Source: Escherichia coli (lineage in GTDB: Bacteria; Pseudomonadota; Gammaproteobacteria; Enterobacterales; Enterobacteriaceae). From it: a stretch of 64,000 nucleotides of DNA. Shown here piece by piece: positions 3,241 to 9,134 of this stretch. Below the pieces are notes generated by a model. The model was not told the DNA's origin, did no database searches, and saw nothing but the letters and a program-made list of their open reading frames with translations. Location: NCBI RefSeq assembly GCF_002854065.1, contig NZ_CP024147.1, one strand, 5' to 3'. A program made the translations under genes and the position numbers. Numbering within the stretch: the stretch's first letter is position 1; each line of letters begins with the position of its first letter.

Positions 3241-3699
3241 ATGACAATTTGGGTGGATGCCGACGCGTGTCCCAATGTAATTAAAGAGATTTTGTATCGC
3301 GCGGCGGAACGTATGCAGATGCCGCTGGTACTGGTAGCAAACCAGAGTTTACGCGTGCCGCCATCGCGATTTATTCGTACGCTGCGCGTCGCGGCAGGTT
3401 TCGACGTTGCCGATAACGAAATTGTCCGGCAGTGTGAAGCGGGCGATTTGGTGATCACCGCAGATATACCTTTGGCTGCTGAAGCCATCGAGAAAGGCGC
3501 TGCGGCGCTTAATCCGCGCGGTGAACGTTACACGCCAGCGACCATTCGTGAGCGCCTGACGATGCGCGATTTTATGGATACCTTACGTGCCAGTGGGATC
3601 CAGACCGGCGGACCAGATAGCCTTTCACAACGTGACCGCCAGGCCTTTGCCGCGGAGCTGGAGAAGTGGTGGCTGGAATTGCAACGTAGTCGTGGCTAA
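3241..3699 (+). CDS. yaiI: UPF0178 family protein YaiI
   Basis: [35 protein letters not shown]...; ATG at 3241 preceded by AAAGGA RBS. Confidence 0.88.
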
Positions 3700-3700
3700 A

Positions 3701-3718
3701 TGTAATTTATTATTTACA
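3701..3718. promoter_or_regulatory. TyrR box (TGTAAT-N6-TTTACA) in aroL control region
   Basis: tgtaatttattatttaca matches TyrR box consensus TGTAAA-N6-TTTACA; aroL is a known TyrR regulon member. Confidence 0.55.
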
Positions 3719-3776
3719 CTTCATTCTTGAATATTTATTGGTATAGTAAGGGATGTATTGAGATTTTCACTTTAAG

Positions 3777-3794
3777 TGGAATTTTTTCTTTACA
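3777..3794. promoter_or_regulatory. second TyrR-box-like site upstream of aroL
   Basis: tggaattttttctttaca (TGGAAT-N6-TTTACA); a gtactagtt TrpR-like half-site follows at about 3804-3812. Confidence 0.45.
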
Positions 3795-3881
3795 ATCGAA
3801 ATTGTACTAGTTTGATGGTATGATCGCTATTCTCATGACACCGGCTTTCGCCGCATTGCGACCTATTGGGGAAAACCCACG

Positions 3882-4406
3882 ATGACACAACCTCTTTTTC
3901 TGATCGGGCCTCGGGGCTGTGGTAAAACAACGGTCGGAATGGCCCTTGCCGATTCGCTTAACCGTCGGTTTGTCGATACCGATCAGTGGTTGCAATCACA
4001 GCTCAATATGACGGTCGCGGAGATCGTCGAAAGGGAAGAGTGGGCGGGATTTCGCGCCAGAGAAACGGCGGCGCTGGAAGCGGTAACTGCGCCATCCACC
4101 GTTATCGCTACAGGCGGCGGCATTATTCTGACGGAATTTAATCGTCACTTCATGAAAAATAACGGGATCGTGGTTTATTTGTGTGCGCCAGTATCAGTCC
4201 TGGTTAACCGACTGCAAGCTGCACCGGAAGAAGATTTACGGCCAACCTTAACGGGAAAACCGCTGAGCGAAGAAGTTCAGGAAGTGCTGGAAGAACGCGA
4301 TGCGCTATATCGCGAAGTTGCGCATATTATCATCGACGCAACAAACGAACCCAGCCAGGTGATTTCTGAAATTCGCAGCGCCCTGGCACAGACGATCAAT
4401 TGTTGA
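3882..4406 (+). CDS. aroL: shikimate kinase II
   Basis: [26 protein letters not shown]... Walker A motif; 174 aa. Confidence 0.95.
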
Positions 4407-4446
4407 TTTTCGAGCGCCTATACTTAACGTTCATCCCGTGAAATAA

Positions 4447-5653: not shown

Positions 5654-5938
5654 ATGCTTCAAAGTAATGAGTACTTTTCCGGCAAAGTGAAATCGATCGG
5701 CTTTTCCAGCAGCAGCACTGGTCGCGCCAGCGTGGGTGTTATGGTTGAAGGCGAATACACCTTCAGCACCGCTGAGCCGGAAGAAATGACGGTAATCAGT
5801 GGCGCGCTGAATGTGTTACTGCCTGACGCGACCGACTGGCAAGTGTATGAAGCCGGTTCGGTGTTTAATGTTCCCGGTCACAGTGAGTTTCATCTGCAAG
5901 TTGCCGAACCCACCTCTTATCTGTGCCGCTATCTGTAA
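5654..5938 (+). CDS. ppnP: pyrimidine/purine nucleoside phosphorylase PpnP (YaiE)
   Basis: 94-aa [17 protein letters not shown]... matches YaiE/PpnP. Confidence 0.9.
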
Positions 5939-6292
5939 TTCCTCGCCTTCCCCTTGAACGGGAGGGCATTTTTCTGAAATATCCTCTCTTTAACCCATAA
6001 TAATATTTCCTTTGCTGCGATTTTTTCAATTTCCGATATATTCATAATTCATCAAGGTTGATATAAATATCATTGAAGATTATGAATAGAATTAATATAT
6101 TGGTCATCTGTATGGTCGTATTTTTTATGACTGGCAATGCATGCGCCACAGAGTGGATCAGTAGCGAGGAGCTTATCACCTCTGACTTTCATCTTATGAC
6201 GGCAGATGAGCGCAACGTGGTTAAAGCGGCAACCGACGATAGTATGGAAGCTGCTTATATGCTAAAAGATAATATCCGCTGGTATTATCATA

Positions 6293-6301
6293 ATGGTGAC
6301 C
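6293..6301. repeat. 9-bp target site duplication (ATGGTGACC), left copy
   Basis: Identical 9-mer immediately flanks both IS1 ends. Confidence 0.85.
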
Positions 6302-6356
6302 GGTGATGCTGCCAACTTACTGATTTAGTGTATGATGGTGTTTTTGAGGTGCTCCA

Positions 6357-6632
6357 GTGGCTTCTGTTTCTATCAGCTGTCCCTCCTGTTCAGCTACTGA
6401 CGGGGTGGTGCGTAACGGCAAAAGCACTGCCGGACATCAGCGCTATCTCTGCTCTCACTGCCGTAAAACATGGCAACTGCAGTTCACTTACACCGCTTCT
6501 CAACCCGGTACGCACCAGAAAATCATTGATATGGCCATGAATGGCGTTGGATGCCGGGCAACCGCCCGCATTATGGGCGTTGGCCTCAACACGATTTTCC
6601 GCCATTTAAAAAACTCAGGCCGCAGTCGGTAA
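6357..6632 (+). CDS. insA: IS1 InsA (transposition inhibitor / N-terminal part of transposase)
   Basis: [46 protein letters not shown]... ; GTG start. Confidence 0.95.
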
Positions 6633-7054
6633 CCTCGCGCATACAGCCGGGCAGTGACGTCATCGTCTGCGCGGAAATGGACGAACAGTGGGGATACGTC
6701 GGGGCTAAATCGCGCCAGCGCTGGCTGTTTTACGCGTATGACAGGCTCCGGAAGACGGTTGTTGCGCACGTATTCGGTGAACGCACTATGGCGACGCTGG
6801 GGCGTCTTATGAGCCTGCTGTCACCCTTTGACGTGGTGATATGGATGACGGATGGCTGGCCGCTGTATGAATCCCGCCTGAAGGGAAAGCTGCACGTAAT
6901 CAGCAAGCGATATACGCAGCGAATTGAGCGGCATAACCTGAATCTGAGGCAGCACCTGGCACGGCTGGGACGGAAGTCGCTGTCGTTCTCAAAATCGGTG
7001 GAGCTGCATGACAAAGTCATCGGGCATTATCTGAACATAAAACACTATCAATAA
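6551..7054 (+). CDS. insB: IS1 InsB' frame (expressed as InsAB' fusion by programmed -1 frameshift at the A6C motif near 6606-6615)
   Basis: ...[26 protein letters not shown]...HYLNIKHYQ* ; TTTAAAAAAC slippery run in insA/insB overlap. Confidence 0.9.
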
Positions 7055-7069
7055 GTTGGAGTCATTACC

Positions 7070-7078
7070 ATGGTGACC
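7070..7078. repeat. 9-bp target site duplication (ATGGTGACC), right copy
   Basis: Identical to 6293-6301. Confidence 0.85.
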
Positions 7079-9134
7079 TATCATTACCCGCTAACTTCAG
7101 CAATCAAAATAAACTGGTGGTGAACGGTAATTTAACGATTTCCGGCGATTATGATGATTATCTGTCAGGTAATGGTCATCTGATTGTATTAGGTAATGTT
7201 ATTGTCGATAACTTTATTAATCATGATTTCGCGTATGTCAAAGGACAGATGACCGCGAAAGGTTTAGTTTATGCTGATTACAATGATCATAACTTTGAAG
7301 TGATGAAGGGAATTAGTGCGCGAGGCATTATTGTTTCCGATAAAGCAACGCAATTTGAAGTCATTAAAGCTGAATTTTATATCAATGAAGATGGAAGTGG
7401 TGAAGGATATAACTGGGATGAGAATATTCAAAAAGCCTATTCACTGGTGACTGCCGATCTTTATGATCACACTGAAATCGAAACCGATAACATTTCCAAT
7501 GCGTATCCTGACTATGATAGCGTCGCAGACAACATCGTTCAGGGTTTACCGCTTTTTCGAGATAAAGCCGCTCCTGAAATTAATGAGAAATTAAAATGGA
7601 TTGAAACGGGGAAACTCGATAATTTCCCAGCGAATAAAATAAAGCATCAAGATCCACTGGTGGCACGTTTGCTGACTCATACAGAGAGTTTATCACCCGC
7701 CGTTATGCTGCAACTGTTACAGCACCCCGATGACCAGACGCGTGAATCGATGGCGCAGTCCTGGCCCGCTCAACAGATGCATTTGCTTACCGATGAATTA
7801 ATTAAAGATGAGGCTGTTGCCAGAGGGCTGGTTAAAAACAGTAATATTTCCGCCGATGTGAATAAAAAATTAATGTCTGTACCCGTCGAGAGCGTACAGC
7901 TGGAGCAGGCCAGACAGGATAATCTTTCTCCAGATATTGTTGCGTCGTTAAGTCATAGCCCCTTTCTCAGTGTACGCAAGACATTACTCAGCCATTACGA
8001 TTACGCCTGGCTGGTTCCGACTGCAGTGGCCGATGAGTTGATAAATAACGAAGACCCGGAGTTACGTGAAAGAATTACCGGAGCAGATTTAACCGCACAA
8101 CAAGCAGTGATGTTGAGTAAAGATAAATCACTGAAAGTTCGTGAAGCATTAGCCCGGACGCTTACTGAATTAAAAATTACCCAACTGTCAGCAACCCTGC
8201 GTACAGAGGATATTGAACGTATCGCAGAACAAATGTATCTGGATAATAAAGAAAATAAAAATATCGTAAAGGCGTTATTGATAGCGTTGCCGGAGATGCG
8301 TCAACTGTCTCTGGCAAAAGAAGATGTGCACAATTTGCGCGAAGGTGCGCGTTATCTGACATCGAAGGACGTGATTAGTTATCTATTGACTCAGCATGAT
8401 GTTCCCACCGTCTGGGATGAGCTGGCACGCGATAAATTATTGCCGCTGGAATATAAGAAACAGTTATGGCAACGCACATTAAATTTAATGATGAGCAAAC
8501 GGCAAGAAGATCAAGAGCAAGCCTACGAAGTACAGCTGGCGCTGATTGATAATGGTGTTGTTGACGAAGAGATGTTAAATAATGCCATTGATTTACTGGT
8601 TGATTTACCCGCTGAATACCGCTATCGAATGCGTAACCAATTATTTGATAATAAAGATTTATCTTCCGGAATTATCAACAAACTCGATCAACAGTATCGC
8701 TTCAACTCTGACTGGGCGCTGTCTGTTGTCAGTATGAAAAATAGCACCCGTAGGCAAAGTGAAAGAGGATTACACCGCTGGAACCGTGAGGATAGCGATA
8801 TTTTTGCAGAACTGGCGACGATAAAAGATAAATCAGATGATGAATGGTGGCGTGCATTGCTGCAAAGTCGCAATGATCATTTGCGCCAAACGGCATTACG
8901 CAACGCACATACCCCGGCGTCGTTGTTAACGACATTGACTGAGCCTCAGGATCGGTCGCTGGCTATTAATAATCCACAGCTGGCTGCCGATGTGAAAACG
9001 GCGTGGTTAAAAGAGGATCCATCATTACTCTTATTTGTCGAACAACCCGATCTTTCGCTGTTACGTGATTTAGTGAAAACCGGGGCAACGCGGAAAATTT
9101 GCAGTGAAGCGCGTCACCGGCTTGAGGAAAAACA

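Follow-up and report, generated by a model that had tools for sequence, protein, structure and literature searches.

The spacer between yaiI and aroL in this Escherichia coli sequence is very probably the E. coli aroL-yaiA-aroM promoter-operator region, under TyrR/TrpR control. It occupies positions 3700 to 3881 (182 bp) of the window, by which we mean the whole 64,000-nucleotide stretch of DNA that was analyzed, and is bounded in the open reading frame (ORF) list by the yaiI stop codon at 3699 and the aroL ATG at 3882. Alignment to the E. coli K-12 MG1655 aroL promoter, the check suggested with the original prediction for this region, matched 181 of the 182 bases, the sole difference being position 3753 (A here, G in K-12). 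The gene order (dgcC, proC, yaiI, aroL, yaiA, aroM, and ppnP) is also the same as in E. coli K-12, and a 501-bp query spanning the spacer was found in 5425 of 5426 complete E. coli genomes at 95 to 100% identity. Compared with the K-12 aroLp promoter-operator, which we take to be the one described by Lawley and Pittard in 1994 and by Heatwole and Somerville in 1992 and catalogued in RegulonDB, we find the same locus, the same three TyrR sites, the same TrpR site, and the same start, with one substitution (3753). The control region of aroL in this genome is thus already known, essentially base for base. It represents textbook regulation of the aromatic amino acid pathway on ordinary backbone sequence, and with a K-12 spacer identical bar one base, the earlier description of it as a backbone feature of low novelty stands. 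Note that the A at 3753, which precedes the P1 start by 2 nt and weak box 2 by 1 nt, is common to several other complete E. coli genomes (100% matches).

The original prediction was incomplete rather than wrong: It missed a weak third TyrR box, the position of the known promoter, and a second, minor start. The features that we recognize, including those, are as follows (the strand is given where a feature has one).

3701 to 3718: predicted strong TyrR box 3, TGTAATTTATTATTTACA, one mismatch to TGTAAA-N6-TTTACA, matrix rank 1
3720 to 3725, plus strand: −35 element of promoter P1, TTCATT, a poor element 16 bp upstream of the −10, with three of six consensus matches
3739 to 3747, plus strand: extended −10 of P1, TGgTATAGT, listed in PMC2760140 supplement 3 as the −10 of aroLp, a known sigma-70 promoter
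3754 to 3771: weak TyrR box 2, TGTATTGAGATTTTCACT, four mismatches, G-N14-C retained, overlapping the P1 start
3755, plus strand: P1 transcription start, present in three published start-site datasets and giving a 127-nt leader
3777 to 3794: predicted strong TyrR box 1, TGGAATTTTTTCTTTACA, two mismatches to the consensus, matrix rank 2
3796 to 3824, plus strand: second promoter P2, TCGAAA, a 17-bp spacer, and TGgTATGAT, the only consensus promoter match in 3550 to 4000
3804 to 3821: putative TrpR operator, GTACTAGTTTGATGGTAT, left half with nine of nine and right half with four of nine consensus matches
3829 to 3832, plus strand: minor P2 start, from 454 and Cappable-seq datasets
3868 to 3872, plus strand: Shine-Dalgarno–like GGGGA, 9 nt before the aroL ATG, read from the sequence
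3882 to 4406, plus strand: aroL coding sequence, shikimate kinase 2, 174 amino acids, from the ORF list and the RefSeq annotation of the identical K-12 locus, with homologues named AroL

Two strings in the spacer had been said to fit the TyrR box pattern, and both are present (boxes 3 and 1), with one and two mismatches, respectively, to TGTAAA-N6-TTTACA. This consensus is an 18-bp palindrome, as quoted in PMC10170061. We scanned the 64 kb with a TyrR matrix made from nine boxes in the K-12 control regions of aroF, tyrP, tyrR, aroP, and mtr, and therefore independent of aroL. Boxes 3 and 1 ranked first and second, at 21.2 and 17.9 bits, with the next match at 12.9 bits. The equal-or-better matrix matches expected per window from shuffles were 0 for box 3 and 0.01 for box 1, and no match equal to box 3 arose in 300 shuffles. 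TyrR boxes retain a G and a C 14 bp apart (G-N14-C). The three aroL boxes all have this pair, as does each strong or weak box that we found in aroF, tyrP, tyrR, aroP, and mtr. Box 2, whose four mismatches are like those of the weak boxes of aroF and aroP, is by sequence alone not above chance (matrix rank 67, with 56 expected). Its start, however, lies exactly 23 bp before that of box 1, and strong/weak pairs at a 23-bp offset occur in K-12 at aroL (−128/−105), aroF (−112/−89), tyrP (−109/−86), and aroP (−88/−65). All three boxes are listed as TyrR sites for aroL in a 2009 scan with the RegulonDB matrix (PMC2760140 supplement 6). Furthermore, the boxes flank the mapped start, 3755, of aroL, an aromatic amino acid biosynthesis gene. 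Judged by consensus, matrix rank, G-N14-C, 23-bp pairing, and promoter position, 3701 to 3718 and 3777 to 3794 have the sequence properties expected of TyrR boxes.

The known promoter, P1, lies between strong boxes 3 and 1, with box 2 over its start, and consequently box 1 and the TrpR site fall in the transcribed leader (centers at +31.5 and +58.5). Relative to the P1 start, box 3 is centered at −45.5, adjoining the −35 region, and box 2 at +8.5; box 1 is also centered at −46.5 from P2. The start itself is well established. It was mapped to U00096.2 405502 by Kim 2012 (136 reads; PMC3415461 supplement 2) and at the same base by Cappable-seq (PMC4782308 supplement 1), and Mendoza-Vargas 2009 gives a 454 start at −127, assigned to the known sigma-70 promoter aroLp with the −10 GGTATAGT (PMC2760140 supplement 3). 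Window coordinates equal U00096.2 coordinates minus 401747, a conversion fixed by aroL at 405629 to 406153 in the Kim table. Our consensus promoter scan missed the P1 −35 element because it has only three of six consensus matches; the element is also poorly conserved (62%).

We compared the spacer across the orthologous loci of ten lineages, collected by an AroL protein search plus exact look-ups and all syntenic for proC-yaiI-aroL-yaiA-aroM-ppnP. These were an E. albertii-like lineage, a divergent E. coli, Citrobacter amalonaticus, C. koseri, C. freundii, Salmonella enterica, Intestinirhabdus, the Enterobacter cloacae complex, Kosakonia, and Lelliottia. A degenerate P-loop pattern, GGNCCNMGNGGNTGYGGNAARACNAC, was also tried for finding loci and was discarded as too generic, with unrelated ATPases among the matches listed. 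Identity figures refer to the 8 closest taxa, and where a range is given, its second figure refers to all ten. Against a background identity to the window of 50 to 60% in the aligned spacer, the elements were conserved as follows.

Box 3 arms: 12 of 12 positions invariant, 100% identity, with the 6-bp box spacer at 69% (8 taxa)
P1 extended −10: 8 of 9 positions invariant in Escherichia, Citrobacter, Salmonella, and Intestinirhabdus, 90% identity (8 taxa)
Box 2 arms: 0 of 12 positions invariant, 61% identity, which is the background level
Box 1 arms: 9 of 12 positions invariant, 89% identity (8 taxa)
TrpR operator left half: 8 of 9 positions invariant, 98 to 99% identity, the best-conserved block of the spacer
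TrpR operator right half: 5 of 9 positions invariant, 88 to 90% identity
P2 extended −10 (TGgTATGAT): 7 of 9 positions invariant, 94 to 97% identity

Spacing is conserved as well. The distance from box 3 to box 1 is 74 to 77 bp in every lineage having both, and the TrpR operator begins 27 to 28 bp after box 1 (27 here) in the sequences carrying it (10 of 11). Box 2 is not conserved outside E. coli, this weak partner being kept only in E. coli-like sequences. The GGG of the Shine-Dalgarno–like GGGGA is invariant in all 11 sequences.

These results bear on whether the TyrR motif matches could be chance products of an AT-rich spacer, without regulatory meaning, which we regard as extremely unlikely. 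The spacer is only 35% G+C, and across the whole window the TyrR consensus is not enriched at up to two mismatches (4 matches versus 2.6 expected) and shows no excess over chance at up to three (31 versus 27 expected). However, two matches with at most two mismatches fell within 100 bp of each other in only 3 of 300 shuffles of the window, and shuffling the AT-rich spacer itself produced two such matches once in 5000 trials. Neither is chance compatible with matrix ranks of 1 and 2 where at most 0.01 such matches are expected, with box arms that stay invariant while the box spacers vary, or with a sequence that differs by one base from the region studied experimentally in K-12. This explanation is already refuted by the conservation and matrix results.

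The control region has also been remodeled among genera, as the differing sets of modules indicate. GTACTAG, from the TrpR operator, is present in 10 of 11 sequences and missing only from the E. cloacae complex, where the whole module is absent: This complex lacks the segment equivalent to about 3720 to 3850, which holds P1, box 2, box 1, and the TrpR operator. All that remains in its upstream region (L125, 1357 to 1500) is a weak box paired with a strong one, about 55 nt from the ATG. In Enterobacter and Lelliottia, a weak box lies 23 bp upstream of the box 3 equivalent, and Kosakonia has a related, more degenerate sequence at this position. The Klebsiella promoter string of Kim 2012 (PMC3415461) likewise has a weak box of this kind, 23 bp before its box 3 equivalent, and the Klebsiella aroL start mapped there falls just after it. 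The upstream regions of Lelliottia and Kosakonia (L131 and L130) combine this upstream pair with the downstream module of box 1 and the TrpR operator. A published survey (PMC5343134) found that TyrR controls aroLM in Enterobacteriales alone and that TrpR does so in just a few close relatives, and the lineage distribution that we find agrees with it.

For TrpR, only a half-site-like element, GTACTAGTT, had been pointed out. It is present at 3804 to 3812, but the element is a full 18-bp operator whose right half is degenerate. Centered at +58.5 from P1 and about −19.5 from P2, the operator sits within the P1 leader. GTACTAGTTTGATGGTAT is the best match in the window to the TrpR consensus GTACTAGTTAACTAGTAC, agreeing at 13 of 18 positions, and 47% of shuffles contain a match as good; against the same consensus the K-12 operators of trp, aroH, trpR, and mtr score 17, 15, 14, and 14 of 18, respectively. 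The left half keeps CTAG (3807 to 3810), and the right half has ATGG (3815 to 3818) where CTAG would be expected. Note that perfect CTAG cores are likewise missing from the trpR and mtr operators of K-12, so two such cores are not strictly required. The left half, GTACTAGTT, occurs as an exact copy only here in the window on either strand, against a chance expectation of 0.125 copies per window. In this DNA, CTAG is far rarer than base composition predicts (22 seen versus about 250 expected). The true chance of GTACTAGTT is therefore somewhat below 0.125, and retention of CTAG in the operator implies selection. This TrpR site is listed for aroL, with a matrix score of 16.32, in PMC2760140 supplement 6. 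As a candidate read from sequence, the operator is marginal in this single sequence, and its support comes from conservation across genera. The motif scan suggested with the original prediction thus placed the TyrR boxes at ranks 1 and 2 and left the TrpR 18-mer marginal when taken singly.

One could argue that the GTACTAGTT block is conserved simply as promoter or leader sequence and that TrpR has no physiological role at aroL. A recent preprint in which neither aroL transcripts nor a reporter showed an effect of trpR knock-down (bioRxiv 10.64898/2025.12.20.695731) would favor this, as would the marginal match in the single sequence and the right half without CTAG. We nevertheless consider it improbable. 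Promoters place no constraint on the sequence of their spacers, and the block sits in that of P2, yet no other 9-mer of the intergenic region is as well conserved (8 of 9 positions invariant, 98 to 99% identity). It is identical to the half-site of the K-12 trp operator, it retains CTAG although this tetramer is strongly avoided in the genome, and its distance from box 1 is fixed at 27 to 28 bp. Synergy of the Trp and Tyr repressors at aroL has also been reported, to judge by the title of a work cited in the literature.

Dual control of aroL, with which the motifs had been called consistent, is borne out by published accounts, in which aroL is repressed by both TyrR (with tyrosine) and TrpR (with tryptophan) (PMC5343134 and PMC3473263), and by the sites listed in PMC2760140 supplement 6. 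Tyrosine turns the TyrR dimer into a hexamer, which blocks RNA polymerase at aroLM and aroF-tyrA (PMC10170061), and the TyrR mutant T495I raises aroL 3.8-fold (PMC5791370). In the 2025 preprint (bioRxiv 10.64898/2025.12.20.695731), knock-down of tyrR raised aroL, knock-down of trpR had no effect, and TyrR alone regulated aroL under the conditions used. This suggests that the contribution of TrpR is small or condition-dependent.

From these elements and the K-12 literature, the following mechanism can be proposed. A sigma-70 promoter with an extended −10 (3739 to 3747) starts aroL transcription at 3755. In the presence of tyrosine and ATP, TyrR dimers bound at the strong boxes would assemble into a hexamer, which would also fill weak box 2 and loop out the 76 bp between box 3 and box 1. 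The loop would enclose the promoter and exclude RNA polymerase. Tryptophan-bound TrpR on the adjacent operator would add a small extra repression that depends on TyrR and needs the exact spacing between box 1 and the operator. The net effect would be that less shikimate kinase II is made when tyrosine is abundant, with a smaller decrease in response to abundant tryptophan. The K-12 studies of Lawley and Pittard and of Heatwole and Somerville (1994 and 1992) are said to have found boxes 1 and 3 essential and box 2 dispensable, and to have seen phased DNase hypersensitivity indicating a loop. They reportedly also saw TrpR protect its site, found it active in tyrR+ cells only, and lost the tryptophan effect on inserting 4 bp between box 1 and the TrpR site. 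The conservation that we observe (boxes 1 and 3 kept, box 2 not, and the spacing between box 1 and the TrpR site fixed) fits these reported results well. Earlier work on aroL is also said to have noted a potential site for IHF; within the spacer, we found no match to WATCAANNNNTTR at up to one mismatch.

Downstream of P1, the second start adds a less familiar element. The 454 dataset has a start at −53 (1 read, flagged 'New' and proposed as a new promoter), with the −35 CAATCGAAA, the −10 GGTATGAT, and a 17-bp spacer (PMC2760140 supplement 3). Cappable-seq places a start at U00096.2 405579, which is 3832 in the window and −50 from the ATG, with a relative read score of 7.35 (PMC4782308 supplement 1) and an enrichment of 3.87 versus 6.23 for P1. 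The Kim 2012 list (PMC3415461 supplement 2) has no entry for it, and we found no functional study of P2 in the literature. The extended −10 of P2 (3816 to 3824) overlaps the right half of the TrpR operator. That half is conserved as TGGTAT, which the next three bases complete to the P2 extended −10. An antisense start, weak at 4 reads in Kim 2012, also maps to this region, at U00096.2 405540 on the minus strand (window 3793). Its −10, TACAAT, is the reverse complement of 3801 to 3806; it arises inside the box 1/TrpR operator region and points toward yaiI and proC.

It is conceivable, although we would not favor it, that the TrpR operator acts mainly on P2, by direct repression through occlusion, with its +58 position from P1 being incidental. 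Such a role for P2 would add to the main explanation and not replace it. Several observations point this way. The P2 starts come from two independent datasets (−53 and −50 from the ATG), and P2 is the sole consensus promoter match in the region, with a TG before its −10. TGgTATGAT is 94 to 97% identical across the ten lineages, and the right half of the operator never drifts to the palindromic CTAGTAC, which suggests a second constraint there. Furthermore, box 1 adjoins the P2 −35 just as box 3 adjoins that of P1, its position at −46.5 from P2 mirroring that of box 3 at −45.5 from P1, and the operator covers the P2 spacer and −10 much as the K-12 trp operator contains its own −10, TTAACT. Against this, tryptophan reportedly has no effect in a tyrR mutant in classical genetics; an effect would be expected if TrpR repressed P2 directly, unless P1 masks P2. 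The P2 signal is weak, with a single 454 read, the lower Cappable-seq enrichment, and no place in the Kim 2012 list, and the 2025 preprint (bioRxiv 10.64898/2025.12.20.695731) again speaks against it with its lack of a trpR effect on aroL. On this evidence, we only tentatively suggest that aroL may have two tandem promoter-operator modules, with P1 guarded by box 3 and P2 guarded by box 1 and the TrpR operator. If so, TrpR would be a classical occluding repressor of P2, and this would explain both why the operator sits at the odd position of +58 and why TGGTATGAT is conserved instead of a palindromic right half. That TrpR may act directly on a conserved downstream promoter is the one angle here that is mildly new. 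With regard to modules, a tandem duplication of 3701 to 3755 and 3777 to 3832 was considered and rejected as unsupported, the similarity following the boxes in E. coli being no better than in shuffles (799 of 2000 as good); the same test in other taxa gave mixed results, with 2 to 653 of 1000 shuffles as good.

Dual control by TyrR and TrpR, as set out above, can be compared with three K-12 systems. Like aroL, aroF-tyrA has a strong and a weak box 23 bp apart and a lone strong box about 52 bp upstream, with box starts at −164, −112, and −89 for aroF and −181, −128, and −105 for aroL. The order of the boxes differs, being lone strong, strong, weak in aroF and lone strong, weak, strong in aroL, and only aroL has an adjoining TrpR operator. 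In aroF, the box pair overlaps the promoter; in aroL, box 3 is on one side of the promoter and the box 2/box 1 pair on the other. Both units are repressed through the TyrR hexamer (PMC10170061). The mtr control region, like that of aroL, combines a TyrR box (TGTAAAATAATATATACA) and a TrpR operator (GTACTCGTGTACTGGTAC), and mtr is the other unit under TyrR and TrpR control, co-regulated with aroL (bioRxiv 10.64898/2025.12.20.695731). According to the same preprint, mtr is activated by TyrR and repressed chiefly by TrpR; the main repressor of aroL is TyrR, with a minor part for TrpR. Both outer GTAC arms remain in the mtr operator, but only the left half does in that of aroL. The half-site of the trp operator (trpLEDCBA), which reads GTACTAGTTAACTAGTTC on one strand, is identical to the aroL left half, and in both systems the operator overlaps a −10 (TTAACT in trp and TATGAT of P2 in aroL). 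The trp operator is, however, a near-perfect palindrome (17 of 18), whereas that of aroL reaches 13 of 18, with ATGG replacing the second CTAG, and the promoter that it overlaps in aroL is minor, unlike in trp.

The aroL leader also holds an upstream ORF (3820 to 3885, 21 codons), which begins with an ATG in the P2 −10 and ends with a TGA that overlaps the aroL ATG (ATGA). Its frame and length are kept in six of the seven lineages with the ATG. We rejected it as a gene: It shows no excess of third-position substitutions (0.36, 0.41, and 0.38) and no Shine-Dalgarno sequence, and its ATG is lost in Kosakonia and Lelliottia. Database 'AroL' proteins of 192 to 195 amino acids proved to be frameshift fusions of this ORF with AroL through different indels. 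They form clusters of 1 to 9 sequences, mostly singletons and on short contigs, and are most likely assembly errors. A hairpin with a 4-bp stem (TCGC-cgcatt-GCGA, 3848 to 3861) lies about 20 nt upstream of the Shine-Dalgarno sequence, and most genera have a 4- to 8-bp stem there with a few compensatory changes, for example, GTCCTGCAC..TGCAGGAC in Kosakonia. Its covariation is slight and statistically weak, with 2 compensatory pairs and a score reached by 22 of 500 shuffles. The fold of the whole leader was not significant (z-score of −1.35), and a search against Rfam returned only a sub-threshold match to GcvB (17.5 bits versus a gathering score of 42; E = 0.34).

Beyond aroL, yaiA has its own strong promoter in the 49-bp aroL-yaiA spacer, at about 4419 to 4431, just past the aroL stop. 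Cappable-seq (PMC4782308 supplement 1) places the yaiA start at U00096.2 406178 (4431 in the window) with a relative read score of 719. This is about 100 times the score of the aroL starts, and the start lies 7 nt after a TATACT −10. Farther along, an IS1 copy at about 6300 to 7100 (InsA ORF at 6357 to 6632) lies downstream of ppnP and adjoins the DUF2773/ykiA region. Positions 5900 to 8400 of the window are covered to at least 80% by only 2 of 5426 complete E. coli genomes, which indicates that the IS1 insertion is rare and specific to a few strains.

Our findings confirm a known control region of practical relevance to strain engineering, in which derepression of aroL is used to raise the flux to shikimate and phenylalanine. 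To this we make a modest addition: Box 3, box 1, and the TrpR left half, together with their spacings, are conserved from Escherichia to Kosakonia and Lelliottia.
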